12,693 bases of DNA from a candidate division FCPU426 bacterium (GTDB taxonomy: Bacteria > Oederibacteriota > JAAXVQ01 > JAUVAV01), in contig DAOWGI010000035.1 of NCBI GenBank assembly GCA_030637655.1, positions 1 through 12,693 on the forward strand. Direction: 5' to 3'. Numbering within the stretch: position 1 is the first letter of the stretch; each line of letters opens with the position of its first letter. Below, one piece after another: positions 914-10,323 of the stretch. The notes beneath the pieces are model-generated. The model had not been told where the DNA came from. It searched no databases and saw only the letters and a list, made by a program, of their open reading frames with translations. The translations under genes and the position numbers were made by a program.

Positions 914-2062
914 TCATAAACGAATAAACCATTTTTTATGATATAGCACATATAACAGACCAAACCAAATCAAAGTATAGGATAATGCATAAAGCAAAGA
1001 ATTAAGATGCATATAGGGTGTGAGCGGCTGAAAGCAGGTTTGAAAAATCCAGGCTTTTAAGGAAACCCCGGTTGTGAGTTTAATCCTTACTAAACACTTG
1101 GCCGTAAAAGAACTGAGAAAATAGGCAAGAATAGCATTAGTACCAAAGATCTGAAAAGGCTTCATAAAAGCAGACCAGGTTTTTACATCCGCATACCAAT
1201 AGATTCCACTGAAAATAATTAATGCTAATCCTGAACTTACCAAAACATAAGAACTGCTCCAGAGGGATTTATTGATTGGGAAAAACGGCGAAATACTATA
1301 ACCTAAAATCAGCATCCCGGTTCCAACCAACACCATTCCCAAAAGTTTTCGCCGTGTTGAAATGGTTTTTTGTAGCCACCAGCAACATATAATTCCGGAT
1401 AAGGTAGTAGCCAAAGCCGAAATAGTACTGAAAAGTCCTTCAGGATCCCACCGGTATTTTGCATAAGCCCATAAGTGGCCATTCATTATCAGACGATCAA
1501 TATAAGCAGCTAGATTATTTTCCTTGGAATTTAATAATCCTGCGCCCTGGCCGGGAACAGGTACGTATTTCATACAAATAAAATAAATTGTCAATAAAGC
1601 GAAAAACAGAAAACCTAAAGTTAAAACAGATGAATTATTTTGCTCATTGTTTTTTTTATGACAAGCCAAGTAAATAAAAGAAGCTAAACCATAGCAAAGA
1701 CCAATTCGCTGCAATACACCCGGGAAGCGCAGGTGATCTCCTTTAAAAGGAAAGCCGTTCAAGACCAGGCCCAGGAGAATTAATAAAAACATTCTTCGTA
1801 AAATTCGCCAGGACACAGTAGCCAGGGAAGTTTGCTGAATGAGCCGGGGATTGAGCGATAAAGGGATGGCCATACCCACAATGAATAAAAAGAAAGGGAA
1901 GATTAAATCAGTAGGAGTCAAGCCCTGCCAGACTGCATGCCGCAAGGGGGCAAATATATGTTTGTAGGTCCCAGGATTGTTGACTATCAGCATGGCAGCT
2001 ATAGTTAAACCGCGAAAAACATCAAGAGAAATGATGCGTGACTTGACAGTAAGTTTGTCCAT
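914..2062 (-). CDS. Membrane acyltransferase, heparan-alpha-glucosaminide N-acetyltransferase-like (NagX / DUF1624 / DUF5009)
   Basis: RIISLDVFRGLTIAAM..VN, HA.W.GLTPTDLIFPFFLFIVG, GVLQRI, DPEG, PINKSLWSSSYVL; many hydrophobic segments. Confidence 0.9.
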   Translation of the reverse strand: MDKLTVKSRIISLDVFRGLTIAAMLIVNNPGTYKHIFAPLRHAVWQGLTPTDLIFPFFLFIVGMAIPLSLNPRLIQQTSLATVSWRILRRMFLLILLGLVLNGFPFKGDHLRFPGVLQRIGLCYGLASFIYLACHKKNNEQNNSSVLTLGFLFFALLTIYFICMKYVPVPGQGAGLLNSKENNLAAYIDRLIMNGHLWAYAKYRWDPEGLFSTISALATTLSGIICCWWLQKTISTRRKLLGMVLVGTGMLILGYSISPFFPINKSLWSSSYVLVSSGLALIIFSGIYWYADVKTWSAFMKPFQIFGTNAILAYFLSSFTAKCLVRIKLTTGVSLKAWIFQTCFQPLTPYMHLNSLLYALSYTLIWFGLLYVLYHKKWFIRL

Positions 2063-2377: not shown

Positions 2378-2996
2378 ACTTGTGGTAATCTATATTCTAT
2401 GGCAATATAAATCCTCTATTAATATAATTAGGAACAAATAACATATGAAAGACGCGCTGTATTGGATAAACAAGTTGAACTTACAACCTCATCCGGAAGG
2501 CAGTTATTACCGGGAAACCTTTCGTGCCCGGGAAATCATTCCTGAAGCTGGTCTGCCGCCCCGTTTCCAAGGCCCGCACAACATGTCCACGGCCATTTAT
2601 TATTTGCTGGAAAAAACCGATTGCTCGCATTTCCACCGCATCCGGGCAGACGAAGTCTGGCATTTTTATACAGGCAGTTCCCTGTGTCTACATGTTTTTA
2701 ATCCGCTCAAATTTTATTCCTACATCCGTCTGGGTTCCCGACCCGAAGCCGGTGATGTCTTCCAAACCGTGATTCCGGCCGGTTCCTGGTTTGCAGCTCA
2801 CTTGCTGGATACTGAAGAATTTGCCCTGGTGGGTTGTACGGTAGCGCCGGGATTTGAATTTCGCGACTTCGAATTAGGTCAACAACAGGATTTGATTCAA
2901 CAATTCCCCGATCATCGAGAATTAATTAAAAAACTTACCCAATCGTAAAACCATTTATCACCGCCGAGACGCTGAGAACGCAGAGAAAATATAGGT
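2378..2996 (+). repeat. Direct repeat copy 2 of 253-871
   Basis: Gap-free alignment at offset 2125 with scattered substitutions. Confidence 0.97.
2445..2948 (+). CDS. Cupin domain protein, DUF985/Cupin_5 family, copy 2
   Basis: 160/167 aa identical to copy 1; HPEGG changed to HPEGS. Confidence 0.92.
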   Translation: MKDALYWINKLNLQPHPEGSYYRETFRAREIIPEAGLPPRFQGPHNMSTAIYYLLEKTDCSHFHRIRADEVWHFYTGSSLCLHVFNPLKFYSYIRLGSRPEAGDVFQTVIPAGSWFAAHLLDTEEFALVGCTVAPGFEFRDFELGQQQDLIQQFPDHRELIKKLTQS

Positions 2997-6686: not shown

Positions 6687-7142
6687 TTATTCTTTCAGAC
6701 TTTCAGGTTTGGTTTCCAATTTGGCTTTGATGAAATCTTTGTGCTCCAGCCACAACAGGTTGCTAATTTTACGGATGGTTTCCACTTCCGAATGAGAAAG
6801 TTCATGATCCGCCCAGGCTACGGAAAACAAATCCCGCACCAATTGCACCCGCTCCGAATACTCGTATTCCTGATTGACTTCCCGAGTAAAGCCTTGCCAG
6901 TCCAAACGCTCCTCAATGGCCCGTTGGGAAGCTGCTAAAATTTCCTGTTGCTCCTCCGGAGTGGTATAGCCTTTCTTGGCCAATAGTGCCTTTTTGGTTT
7001 CTATTTCCTGCTCTGTAATTTTTCCATCAGCCTTAGATACCAGGGATAGCAGAGCGCCCAAAACAACACGGTAGGTCAATTCATGACCGGGTTTCTCTTG
7101 GCTTTGGCTAATCATCTGAGTAAAACGATCCAAAATTCCCAT
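6687..7142 (-). CDS. TerB family (tellurite resistance-like) protein
   Basis: ALL..VSKADGKITEQE, LFSVAWADHELSHSE...IRKI..LL; AAGGAG RBS. Confidence 0.85.
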   Translation of the reverse strand: MGILDRFTQMISQSQEKPGHELTYRVVLGALLSLVSKADGKITEQEIETKKALLAKKGYTTPEEQQEILAASQRAIEERLDWQGFTREVNQEYEYSERVQLVRDLFSVAWADHELSHSEVETIRKISNLLWLEHKDFIKAKLETKPESLKE

Positions 7143-7174: not shown

Positions 7175-7888
7175 TTACAGGTTACGCAGGCCAATCTCAC
7201 GCACATAGGGCCGGGCTATCTCCTGAAAACGCTCCAGCACTTCGCGCGGATAGGGCGGACGGCCATTCAAATCAGGATGGGTAACATGCGTGGGCAGATA
7301 TTGCTGCAGATAATAGGCAGGCGCTCCCTGAATTAATTTGGCAATGGCCAAAACATCCTGGTCCATGACCAAACCCGGAACACAAGTGGTGCGGAACTCA
7401 TATTCCAAATTAGAAGTGGACTTTAAAAAGGAAACGGTCTCTTGCAACTGCTCGGCAGCGTCCGCCGGCGCTTGCAAAGCCCGGGGATAGCGCTGCGGAG
7501 AAGTCTTCATATCCACTGCCACATAATCCACCAAATTCTCTTTGACCAATATCTTGAGGATATTGGCACGCATGCCATTGGTATCCAATTTGATAGTCAG
7601 ACCCGTCGTGCGGAGGCTGCGTAAAAGATAGGTCAATTGCGCATGAACTGTCGGCTCCCCACCGGTTACCACAATACCATCCAATAGTTTTCGGCGGCGC
7701 TTGATGGCCTCAATCAATTCGTCCAAACGGAGGTCTTCCAGTCCCTGATCTTCGCTCACCAATAGCGTATTATGGCAAAAAGGGCAGCGCAAGTTGCAGC
7801 CGCTTAGAAAAACCACGGCGGCAACCCGGCCCGGAAAATCAATTAGGGAAGTCCCTAAAAATCCCTTGATGCCCTGAATAATATTCAT
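7175..7888 (-). CDS. nrdG: Anaerobic ribonucleoside-triphosphate reductase activating protein (radical SAM)
   Basis: SLIDFPG..AAVVFL.GCNLRCPFCHN (CxxxCxxC), GIVVTGGEPT, KLDTNG, YEFRTT. Confidence 0.95.
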   Translation of the reverse strand: MNIIQGIKGFLGTSLIDFPGRVAAVVFLSGCNLRCPFCHNTLLVSEDQGLEDLRLDELIEAIKRRRKLLDGIVVTGGEPTVHAQLTYLLRSLRTTGLTIKLDTNGMRANILKILVKENLVDYVAVDMKTSPQRYPRALQAPADAAEQLQETVSFLKSTSNLEYEFRTTCVPGLVMDQDVLAIAKLIQGAPAYYLQQYLPTHVTHPDLNGRPPYPREVLERFQEIARPYVREIGLRNL

Positions 7889-8034
7889 TTGGTAACAGTC
7901 TCTTTGGTTGGCACTTCAAATTCAGTCCGATCTTTGAATTCTTCGCGTTTGCCTTTATTCCATTGCTGTACCGGCCGGAAATACCCGACCACACGGGAAT
8001 ACACCTCGGTTTTTTGCGTACATTTCTTTGACAT
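7885..8034 (-). CDS. 49-aa stand-alone glycyl-radical segment of class III RNR (separate NrdD C-terminus)
   Basis: My translation: MSKKCTQKTEVYSRVVGYFRPVQQWNKGKREEFKDRTEFEVPTKETVTK*; RVVGY glycyl-radical motif and WNKGK.EEF.DR; strong RBS AAAGGAGGT; stop overlaps the nrdG start (ATGA). Confidence 0.93.
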   Translation of the reverse strand: MSKKCTQKTEVYSRVVGYFRPVQQWNKGKREEFKDRTEFEVPTKETVTK

Positions 8035-8039
8035 GGATA

Positions 8040-10130
8040 TTACCTCCTTTCACTCGTTACAGGAGTGGGTGAAGTTTTGACTTGCTCTTTTTCCCGGGTT
8101 TGAATTTCTTTGACAGGCGGCTCCTCGTAAGCAACCCGGCCTTCTTCCTTCATATGCGGACACTCGTAATGCTCTCCGCGGATGTATCCATGCACCGGAC
8201 ATACGGAGAAGGTTGGCGAGATGGTAAAATACGGCAAATGATAATTTTCCGCAATACGCCGCACCAAATTGCGGCAAGCCATGGGATTATCAATACTCTC
8301 GCCCAGGAAAATATGTAAAACCGTGCCACCGGTATAACTGGCTTGTAATTCATCCTGATGCTCCAGGACCTCAAAAATATCAGTAGAGCCATCCACTGGA
8401 TATTGGGTGGAATTGGTATAATAGGGTTCATCCGTACCTGACGTCAGTATATCTGGAAATTCGCGCCGGTCCAAGCTGGCAAAGCGATACGAAGTCCCTT
8501 CTCCCGGTGTGGCTTCCAAGTTATAAAGATCACCATCCTCTTCCTGGTATTCCTGCAAACGCTTCCGCATAACGTGCAAGGTCTTGAGCGCTAAATCCCG
8601 GCCCTCATTACTGTCAATGCCTTTGCCAATTAGATTCCGCACAGCCTCGTGCATGCCGGAAAGACCGATGGTGGAAAAATGATTGGACCAGTATTGTCCG
8701 ATGCGCTGTTTGACTCCGGCTAAATAAAATTTGGAATAGGGGTATAGATTTTTCTCAGTATACCGCTCCACAATCTTGCGCTTGGTTTGCAGGCTCTCAC
8801 GAGCAAGGTCCATGAGATTGAGAATGCGGGAATGGAATTCATCCTCAGAGGTTGACAAATACGCTGCCCGGGACATATTCAAGGTCACCACACCCAGACT
8901 CCCGGTCAAAGGATTGGAGCCAAATAATCCGCCGCCGCGTTTGCGCAGTTCGCGATTATCCAAACGCAGACGGCAACACATGGAACGCGCGTCTTCCGGA
9001 TCCATATCACTGTTAATGAAATTGGCAAAATAGGGTATGCCGTATTTCGCGGTCATGGCAAAAATATCATTCACAATCGGCGCTTCCCAATTAAAATCAC
9101 GTGTCAGGTTGTAGGTAGGTATGGGGAAGGTAAAAATACGTCCGCGCGCGTCTCCTTGCATCATAACTTCACAAAAGGCCTTATTGAACATATCCATCTC
9201 ATTTTGGAACTCACCATAAGTACACTCTTGCAGCTCTCCGCCAATGATGACCGGTTCACATTTCATGCGTTCCGGTATCTGCAAATCCATGGTCACATTG
9301 GTAAACGGAGTTTGGAAACCGACCCGGGTAGGCACATTGATATTAAATATGAATTCCTGCATGCATTGCACCACTTCACGATAGCTGAGTTTATCGTACG
9401 CGATGAACGGCGCCAGGTAGGTATCAAAATTCGAAAACGCCTGAGCGCCGGCCGCCTCGCCCTGCAGGGTGAAAAAGAAATTGCAGATTTGTCCCAAAGC
9501 GGTCCGGAAATGGTTGGGTGGACCACTCTCGGTTTTTCCATAGGCACCTTGCAGTCCCTGCATAAACAGATCGCGCAGATCCCAACCGCAACAGTAGACC
9601 GAGAGAGAACCGAGGTCATGAATATGAAAATCACCGTTTAAGTGCGCGGCCCGGACGCGTTCGGAATGAATTTCCTCCAGCCAATATTGCGAAACCAAAA
9701 TGGCGGTAATATGATTATTCATCCCTTGCAAGGAATAGCTCATGTTGGAGTTTTCTTTAATACGCCAATCATTTTTTCCCAGATAATTATCAATAAGCTC
9801 ATTGGCCGATGAGAAGAGCTCTTGGGTATGGCGCAGTTTAGTGTGCTGGGCGCGATAGAGAATATATTGCTTGGAGACTTCTTTAAAACCCTGGTCCATC
9901 AAGGTGGTTTCAACGATGTCCTGGACATTTTCTACAGTTGGAATCTGATCTCCCTTGTAGATCGCGCGCAAGATGTTGTGGACTCGACGCGCAACATTTT
10001 GGGCTTGTTCAAGATCATGTTGACCAACAGCTGACATAGACCGGTACACTGCATTGACAATCTTCTGCTCATCAAAAAGAACTAATCGCCCATCCCTTTT
10101 CCTAATCTGGCCAATGCCCTGAATTTCCAT
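8040..10130 (-). CDS. nrdD: Class III ribonucleoside-triphosphate reductase large subunit with N-terminal ATP cone, lacking the glycyl-radical loop
   Basis: IRKRDGR...FD..KI ATP cone; HIHDL...YCCGW; SMCCRL finger loop; GS.GVVTLN; LEATPGEG; YTGGTVLH; CPVH...CPH; start moved to ATG 10130 after AGGGGG. Confidence 0.95.
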   Translation of the reverse strand: MEIQGIGQIRKRDGRLVLFDEQKIVNAVYRSMSAVGQHDLEQAQNVARRVHNILRAIYKGDQIPTVENVQDIVETTLMDQGFKEVSKQYILYRAQHTKLRHTQELFSSANELIDNYLGKNDWRIKENSNMSYSLQGMNNHITAILVSQYWLEEIHSERVRAAHLNGDFHIHDLGSLSVYCCGWDLRDLFMQGLQGAYGKTESGPPNHFRTALGQICNFFFTLQGEAAGAQAFSNFDTYLAPFIAYDKLSYREVVQCMQEFIFNINVPTRVGFQTPFTNVTMDLQIPERMKCEPVIIGGELQECTYGEFQNEMDMFNKAFCEVMMQGDARGRIFTFPIPTYNLTRDFNWEAPIVNDIFAMTAKYGIPYFANFINSDMDPEDARSMCCRLRLDNRELRKRGGGLFGSNPLTGSLGVVTLNMSRAAYLSTSEDEFHSRILNLMDLARESLQTKRKIVERYTEKNLYPYSKFYLAGVKQRIGQYWSNHFSTIGLSGMHEAVRNLIGKGIDSNEGRDLALKTLHVMRKRLQEYQEEDGDLYNLEATPGEGTSYRFASLDRREFPDILTSGTDEPYYTNSTQYPVDGSTDIFEVLEHQDELQASYTGGTVLHIFLGESIDNPMACRNLVRRIAENYHLPYFTISPTFSVCPVHGYIRGEHYECPHMKEEGRVAYEEPPVKEIQTREKEQVKTSPTPVTSERR

Positions 10131-10257
10131 AAAAAGAATGCCCCCCTGCAAGAATGGCTGAGATATACGGCCTCTGATTACGAGAAAAAAGGCCTTATTT
10201 CGTCAATTTTCAGTAGAAATAGTATAGAAATTGGTAAAACTGGGTTTTCTGCTAAGA

Positions 10258-10305
10258 TCACAATATCTTGTTGTATGGCTAATATCGATATACTATATAC
10301 ACGAC
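10258..10305. promoter_or_regulatory. Putative tandem NrdR boxes
   Basis: TCACAATATCTTGTTG (10258-10273) fits acaCwAtATaTwGtg; weaker ATACTATATACACGAC starts 32 bp away (10290-10305); upstream of nrdD. Confidence 0.65.
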
Positions 10306-10323
10306 ATACACATATATTGTCAA
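10292..10323 (-). promoter_or_regulatory. Putative nrdD promoter
   Basis: Perfect TTGACA at 10323-10318 followed after 18-20 bp by TATATAGT; spacing not optimal. Confidence 0.45.

Follow-up and report, generated by a model that had tools for sequence, protein, structure and literature searches.

The closest described relatives of the system analysed here are the class III ribonucleotide reductases (RNRs) composed of a one-chain catalytic subunit, NrdD, and the activase NrdG, represented by phage T4 (1H78), T. maritima (4COI/4U3E) and P. copri (8P23) and by the profiles NF006126 and TIGR02487. A locus of the same family by profile has been identified in a 12,693-nt stretch of DNA (contig DAOWGI010000035.1 of assembly GCA_030637655.1, the whole of which is called the window below) from a candidate division FCPU426 bacterium. 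The enzyme encoded in the window and one-chain NrdD have in common an ATP-cone, the MCCR finger loop, the residues of a CxxH/CxxC site, the RVVGY loop and an adjacent nrdG gene. In contrast to one-chain NrdD, the chain is cut between the third and the fourth putative metal ligand, and the radical glycine, together with the residue at the fourth-ligand position, is located on a separate protein of 49 residues. The locus can be read, with a probability of about 75%, as encoding an obligate two-subunit class III RNR whose small subunit supplies the fourth zinc ligand, the EVYSR strand and the radical glycine.

A free-standing radical part is known from pyruvate formate-lyase (PFL), for which the autonomous glycyl radical cofactor GrcA/YfiD serves as a "spare part" (PMC8683613, PMC12288474, both in excerpt). 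As portrayed in these excerpts, GrcA/YfiD resembles the small protein of the window in being small, free-standing and equipped with a glycyl-radical loop that docks into a large glycyl-radical enzyme. GrcA accompanies a PFL that is itself complete, as an extra copy, and comes into action once oxygen has cleaved the enzyme; the large subunit of the window, by contrast, has no glycine of its own, and for this reason the small protein, unlike GrcA, would be obligate. No PFL-type Gly_radical domain was found in the small protein by Pfam at E up to 0.1, and the protein is also not an extra copy beside an enzyme with its own radical domain. We know of no zinc ligand in GrcA.

RNRs with a catalytic subunit encoded in pieces have also been reported, namely NrdA-a/NrdA-b of Aeromonas phage Aeh1, NrdJa/NrdJb, and phage nrdD genes split by introns, by inteins or into fragments (PMC3653736, in excerpt); some of these catalytic subunits made from two open reading frames (ORFs) work (PMC3653736, citing Friedrich et al. 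2007). Like the window, they distribute the catalytic subunit over two ORFs. Unlike the window, their splits result from homing endonucleases, introns, inteins or unexplained fragmentation, and for none of them does the excerpted text speak of a conserved small radical-bearing subunit or of a divided metal site. In the full-text literature searched, from which supplements and most subscription journals were absent, no account was found of an NrdD radical subunit encoded by its own gene or of a divided metal site. To our knowledge, every class III RNR that has been studied is a single chain.

Organization of the split nrdD locus

The three genes of the locus are located next to each other on the minus strand of the window, to which all gene positions given here refer, in the order nrdD-large, small subunit gene and nrdG. 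The nrdD-large gene, encoding the catalytic subunit of the class III RNR, occupies positions 8040..10130 and specifies 696 residues, from an ATG at 10130 to a TAA at 8042-8040. A TTG at 10151 is a possible upstream start; the ATG appears the likelier of the two, because the NF006126 profile begins seven residues past that methionine and the relatives start there. The protein ends with SVCPVHGYIRGEHYECPH, followed by 37 hydrophilic residues in which the RxxGY motif is absent. The stretch AAAGGAGGT lies at 8050-8042, and a spacer of 5 nt leads from the nrdD-large stop to the small gene. The AGGAGG ribosome-binding site (RBS) of the small gene (8043..8048, minus strand), 8 nt upstream of its ATG, is placed within the last codons of nrdD-large, and most of the 32 listed relatives have a comparable purine-rich site 5' of their small gene.

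The small subunit gene itself (7885..8034, minus strand) has 49 codons, from the ATG at 8034 to the stop at 7887-7885, in a frame different from that of nrdD-large. Its product begins with M-S-K-K-C and carries TEVYSRVVGY; the codon of Cys5 is located at 8022-8020 and that of Gly17, within the RVVGY radical loop, at 7986-7984. The nrdG gene (7175..7888, minus strand) encodes a radical S-adenosylmethionine (SAM) activase with the CxxxCxxC motif, assigned to NrdG2 by TIGR02495 (192.5 bits, cut-off 131.15), and its ATG at 7888 overlaps the TGA of the small gene as ATGA (7888-7885). A first-pass annotation of this DNA, made from the sequence alone, had described an NrdD with a tail of about 37 residues in place of RxxGY, and an unlisted ORF five bases past the nrdD stop, in another frame, with its own RBS and an ATGA overlap with nrdG; translation of the ORFs confirms each of these points.

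The Pfam family NRDD (PF13597) is divided between the two genes: of its 562 profile positions, the large ORF matches 1-526 and the small ORF 526-562. The large protein reaches 604.9 bits with PF13597, 526.7 bits with TIGR02487 and 1017.8 bits with NF006126 (PRK08270 NrdD, cut-off 548), and it carries an ATP-cone (PF03477). The small protein scores 43.7 bits with PF13597 (cut-off 26.2, E 2e-11); no other Pfam family was found on it at E up to 0.1, and NCBIfam contains no model specific to it. The finger loop M384-C385-C386-R387 and the YCCGW motif are invariant in 29 aligned large subunits. MCCR or MGCR is the motif of the finger-loop catalytic cysteine, and MCCR defines the double-cysteine subclass (Burnim preprint, section 10, in excerpt). 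By these motifs the large chain keeps the catalytic set intact, that is, the MCCR finger loop and the two cysteines of YCCGW. The profile match, the finger-loop motif and the adjacent radical-SAM activase are thus those of a class III NrdD, while the glycyl-radical loop RVxGY and a four-ligand metal site are missing from the one chain.

Metal site and position of the cut

In the nearest one-chain relatives, of about 590-820 residues, the region in question reads ...PTFSIC-P-x-H-G-Y...G-E-H-x-x-C-P-x-C, followed by mostly three residues and by [T/C]-E-V-Y-S-R-V-V-G-Y. The metal site of this NrdD subfamily, as read from these sequences, is formed by CxxH and CxxC, with the last cysteine five residues before the glutamate of EVYSR. 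The putative zinc ligands on the large chain of the window (8160..8201, minus strand) are Cys644 (8201-8199), His647 (8192-8190) and Cys657 (8162-8160), in the 696-residue numbering; all three are invariant in the 29 aligned large subunits and match the CxxH...CPxC of the one-chain relatives. The chain then ends after C-P-H of the second zinc knuckle and continues into the tail, the cut falling between the third and the fourth ligand. Cys5 of the small protein is likewise situated five residues before the glutamate of EVYSR and, because this distance is the same in the nearest one-chain relatives, occupies the position of the fourth ligand. The spacing argument had already been put forward in the first-pass annotation, and the distance from CPxC to EVYSR in the one-chain relatives bears it out.

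The hydrophilic tail of 37 residues (residues 660-696; 8043..8153, minus strand) brings Met660 to the fourth-ligand position, at which the large chains of the window's order have M, D, H, Q, A or E. Across 13 order-level rows the identity of the tail is 0.14 versus 0.82 for the body, and lineages elsewhere that share this cut have tails of 0-10 residues, as in an ORF stopping right after C-P-Y. Since it is unconserved here and so short elsewhere, the long tail is not a part of the design; in the window it mainly carries the RBS of the small gene.

Conservation of the two reading frames

A sample of 99 genomes of the phylum was searched and 36 had an NF006126 match over the cut-off; 33 loci and that of the window were translated, with G091 and G096 left out. 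A stop between the body and the radical loop is present in all 34 translated loci, of which 14 are window-like and 20 belong to a second split type. L044, in which no ATG start was found, was omitted from alignment A1. The 13 relatives fetched from the window's order all have the same two-ORF layout. Their ORFs are sometimes in the same frame, parted by TGA or TAG, and sometimes shifted, with a gap of -1 to 515 nt from the large to the small gene. The small protein begins with M-x-K-K-C in every case, in most of them preceded by a purine-rich RBS. In the first 36 codons of the 14 small genes the mean proportion of synonymous differences (pS) is 0.76 and that of nonsynonymous differences (pN) is 0.04 (91 pairs). 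The small frame is under strong purifying selection, with synonymous sites nearly saturated and replacement sites almost unchanged.

The junction was further compared, over positions 7800-8300, with contigs of public sequencing runs; none of the 14 runs found is listed as holding RNA. Only X1 and X5 bridge it, the X3 contigs ending on either side of 8027-8099, and the identical X1 contig is not counted as independent, as it may be the source of this DNA. A contig of 377 nt from a run of another study covers 7969-8300 and differs there by 11 substitutions, without an indel; a diverged strain therefore keeps both the stop and the frame change, and an assembly error at the junction, against which a check by reads had been advised at the outset, finds no support there.

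An indel error would be expected to leave a long gene with a stop and a shifted frame close to its 3' end, and a broken gene or an assembly or sequencing error is therefore an explanation to be weighed. It is excluded by the independent contig, by the conservation of the split throughout the phylum sample and in several other phyla, and by the selection acting on the small frame, and we find it hardly credible. The same three lines of evidence argue against a recoding of both ORFs into one chain by programmed frameshift, stop read-through, translational bypass or protein trans-splicing, an explanation that we judge very improbable even with five relatives (L037, L039, L040, L043, L044) in which the ORFs share a frame and only a single TGA or TAG stands between them. 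Frameshift, read-through and a split intein were rejected, given a frame relation and a gap that vary even among close relatives, an ATG for each small gene together with a purine-rich RBS for most, and a tail that is short and unconserved. At the sizes that inteins have, this tail and the four residues before Cys5 are far too short for the halves of a split intein, and the intein motif is absent. The proposal that the enzyme is encoded as two polypeptides is accordingly upheld by the ORFs, their conservation and the purifying selection.

Second split type and origin of the cut

The second split type, found in 20 loci (L015-L034) from other families of the same phylum, agrees with that of the window in its NF006126 class, in the gene order large-small-nrdG, in a tail that starts in a K/R-E-E-like manner after the Cys4 position, and in a cut placed within one residue, here one residue later. 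In contrast to the window, the large chain keeps the whole of C-P-x-C and ends in about 20 residues with hydrophobic residues spaced by 3-4 (heptad-like), while the small protein starts with a similar heptad-like stretch of about 20 residues and has K, R or H, not Cys, at position -5 from the glutamate. From their spacing, these stretches are probably paired helices that replace the shared metal site.

The phylogeny was built from 380 body residues ending at the first ligand, by which the columns of the trait itself are excluded. In a FastTree phylogeny of 155 rows the in-knuckle type needs four changes, only one of them forced by starred (well-supported) branches. A quick IQ-TREE phylogeny of 66 picked rows forces two changes, and in it a branch with 100% support parts the Lentisphaerota-Verrucomicrobiota-Planctomycetota group from the group of the window. 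The approximately unbiased (AU) test rejects one clade of in-knuckle bodies with p 3.25e-08 and a log-likelihood (lnL) difference of 113.5, for a group that is defined by the trait and in a test run after the first tree had been inspected. On this result a single origin of the in-knuckle cut on the bodies was discarded; either the cut has more than one origin, or recombination carried the 3' module from one nrdD lineage to another. The clade of the window groups with the Desulfuromonadales type (support 87-90, not starred) and not with the other split type of the phylum, even though these two types have the K/R-E-E-like tail start in common. The in-knuckle break, singled out in the first-pass annotation as the notable detail, recurs in several phyla, on bodies that are not one clade.

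Distribution and the single fourth cysteine

A collection of 5.8 billion proteins, clustered at 90%, contains 347 small homologues of 26-86 residues. The radical glycine is present in all 120 of those listed; 111 of the 120 have Cys at -5, six are annotated from a later Met, and three have S, L or K. With these homologues and the layout common to all 13 order-level relatives, the two ORFs are not a matter of chance. The best 80 loci of the species-genome collection were sorted by script into 40 split, 32 fused, six small-only and two without the motif, with three of the 32 "fused" loci (L052, L070, L116) being small genes within long chance open frames. The in-knuckle cut occurs in metagenome-assembled genomes (MAGs) labelled Desulfuromonadales and other Thermodesulfobacteriota, Lentisphaerota/Victivallales, Verrucomicrobiota, Planctomycetota (Thermoguttaceae) and Muiribacteriota, and in further bacteria. 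MAGs labelled Victivallis vadensis, Desulfuromonas, Trichloromonas, Geoalkalibacter and Syntrophotalea share the gene layout of the window. The split form is conserved, widespread and common; the early caution that it might not be unique was justified by the number of small homologues and the several phyla involved.

The fourth-ligand cysteine was counted in 71 split loci with both pieces visible; L026, L052, L070 and L097, whose small genes lie within long chance open frames, were set aside. A large chain without Cys4 is combined with a small protein having Cys at -5 in 49 loci, and the reverse arrangement, Cys4 on the large chain and none at -5, is present in 21. No locus has the cysteine on both pieces and one, L094, has it on neither. 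The rule is near-perfect: 70/71 split loci have the cysteine once and once only, on the piece to which the cut assigns it. A functional four-ligand site shared by two chains predicts such a pattern.

Model of the complex

The co-fold of both chains with zinc was calculated from residues 120-696 of the large protein, the small protein and Zn, with each protein entered as an alignment. The score was 0.83, as against 0.10 for the best control. The mark set for this score is reached by 58/80 solved complexes and by 2/110 mismatched pairs, and the score covers the docking and not the zinc geometry. The runs agree in at least 83% of the contacts and the partner has a pLDDT of at least 74. In the model, residues 640-647, 650 and 653-661 of the large chain form the interface with residues 2-20 of the small protein, TFSV of the large chain pairs with EVY of the small one, and the tail lies outside the confident interface. 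The contacts of least error are those between the strands (large 640-644, small 9-13) and do not include Cys5. The predicted structure supports docking of the small protein on the large chain.

Proposed mechanism and weighing of the evidence

In the proposed enzyme three of the four zinc ligands would come from the large subunit, along with the ATP-cone and the catalytic barrel and its MCCR finger loop. The small subunit would bring Cys5 as the fourth ligand, the TEVYSR strand, pairing with TFSV of the large chain, and Gly17. Its radical loop would be inserted into the barrel in the manner of the C-terminal domain of one-chain enzymes, Cys5 would complete the zinc site that holds the radical loop, and NrdG would convert Gly17 into the radical. 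The role of the zinc finger follows Logan et al. 2003, as cited in the excerpted Burnim preprint. The three genes would be translationally coupled through the RBS of the small gene inside the large gene, the 5-nt gap and the ATGA leading into nrdG, and near-equal amounts of the three proteins would therefore be expected. An inter-chain zinc site completed by Cys5 is strongly suggested by the near-perfect complementary distribution of the cysteine over the two chains. As for the inter-chain site of the first-pass annotation, the one-copy pattern of the cysteine and a compatible co-fold stand in its favour, while the bridging by zinc itself, like assembly and activation by NrdG, is something that we infer.

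Several observations weigh against this two-subunit zinc-bridged enzyme. The 49 and 21 loci behind the one-cysteine rule are kin within a handful of clades, and the counts overstate their independence. The co-fold may pass through likeness to the solved one-chain NrdD structures (T4, T. maritima, P. copri). In L094, from a Leptospirales MAG, and in P0113 and P0118 ("VPVEVYSR"), two of the 120 listed small homologues, neither piece carries a Cys where the fourth ligand would be, and for this reason a split enzyme can apparently exist without this ligand. His654 of the G-E-H motif is conserved in all 13 order-level rows and is conceivable as a substitute ligand. Lastly, the genome encodes a second RNR, a PF02867 large subunit (440 bits, 1170-residue open frame, G000:C105:11094-13748) for which no PF00268 partner was found in the genome and which, by its family, is probably a class II enzyme. 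Its presence leaves the indispensability of the split enzyme unsupported, and an argument from essentiality was dropped on that account.

Some of these points would also suit an enzyme of two polypeptides in which Cys5 is no zinc ligand. The site would then be three-coordinate, supplemented by water or His654, or the metal would be lost, and the small protein would be held by beta-strand pairing and by burial of the radical loop in the barrel. The three cases without the cysteine, the invariance of His654 in the order and the strand-to-strand contacts of least error, which leave out Cys5, speak for such an arrangement. It is nevertheless a quite improbable one in our estimate, as Cys5 is retained in 111/120 of the listed small proteins and the cysteine is found on both pieces in 0/71 split loci and on neither in 1/71. 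The G-E-H motif is moreover common in one-chain forms that keep CPxC and all four ligands, and His654 varies in the sister lineage.

The two-subunit enzyme with Cys5 as fourth ligand can be extended to an exchangeable radical cartridge, akin to the cheap, replaceable subunit that the first-pass annotation had put forward. The free peptide would be activated by NrdG and would then dock, latched through Cys5 at the zinc site, and after oxygen cleavage at Gly17 only the 6-kDa piece would be replaced. The cut would have been selected more than once, since the enzyme bodies that carry it are not one clade. We regard this extension as rather unlikely. No second copy of the small gene was found in the genome, which is 91.55% complete.

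Variant arrangements of the small gene

The longest spacer among the order-level relatives is that of L046 (G006:C1), with about 515 nt between the large stop and the small start, compared with -1 to 123 nt in the others, and it may hold a same-strand ORF with hydrophobic stretches. Small radical-loop genes without an nrdD body on the DNA examined are present at L048 (G079:C59), L050 (G090:C72), L069 (the second site on a Lentisphaeria chromosome), L084 and L103, and these genes are candidates for extra "spare" copies. G079 has a complete second-type pair elsewhere, besides L048. In G090, a genome 96% complete, the NF006126 search gave no NrdD body, and the small ORF lies between outer-membrane-like and metE-like ORFs, both guessed from sequence.

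Proteins of 87-119 residues that combine their own CxxC...CxxC ribbon with a radical loop are encoded at L079 and L110 (both Patescibacteria MAGs) and L107, and further ribbon-bearing radical proteins are P0137, P0161, P0165, P0171-P0173, P0179, P0234 and P0240. At L079 and L110 the ribbon-type protein follows a complete one-chain NrdD and is a true extra copy, and at L107 the body's own radical loop has decayed. In P0131-P0162 (169-196 residues) the small-subunit sequence continues without a stop into an apparent lipoprotein signal peptide (a hydrophobic stretch, a small residue and Cys) and a further domain, the only Pfam match being the NRDD tail; these proteins may be true fusions, or they may owe their length to a missed stop or to an artefact of gene calling. 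Fusions of the small radical subunit are also seen in P0139, with a dCMP/cytidine deaminase domain, and in P0205, with a glutaredoxin/thioredoxin-like domain.

Other features of the window

Directly downstream of nrdG, on the same strand, lies a gene for a TerB-domain protein (6687-7142, minus strand). Upstream of nrdD, at 10259-10320, the AT-rich, partly palindromic stretches ACAATATATGTGT and ACAACAAGATATTGTG are reminiscent of NrdR boxes. A stand-alone ATP-cone was not among the matches to NF006126 in the genome, and no Rfam family was found in the window at gathering thresholds. Two Cupin_5 (DUF985) genes of 167 residues each (320-823 and 2445-2948, plus strand) flank a DUF5009 gene (914-2062, minus strand), and the pair is a local duplication.

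Implications for class III reductases

In one-chain enzymes, contact with the activase requires that the radical domain swing out of the barrel. A free protein of 49 residues with the radical loop would be a minimal substrate for NrdG, and with the split enzyme one could test directly if the zinc site does no more than keep the radical loop in position. A detachable radical part has so far been known from pyruvate formate-lyase, and the split enzyme would be the first further candidate. The small gene of this common form is mislabelled or missed by gene callers and family models built for one chain.

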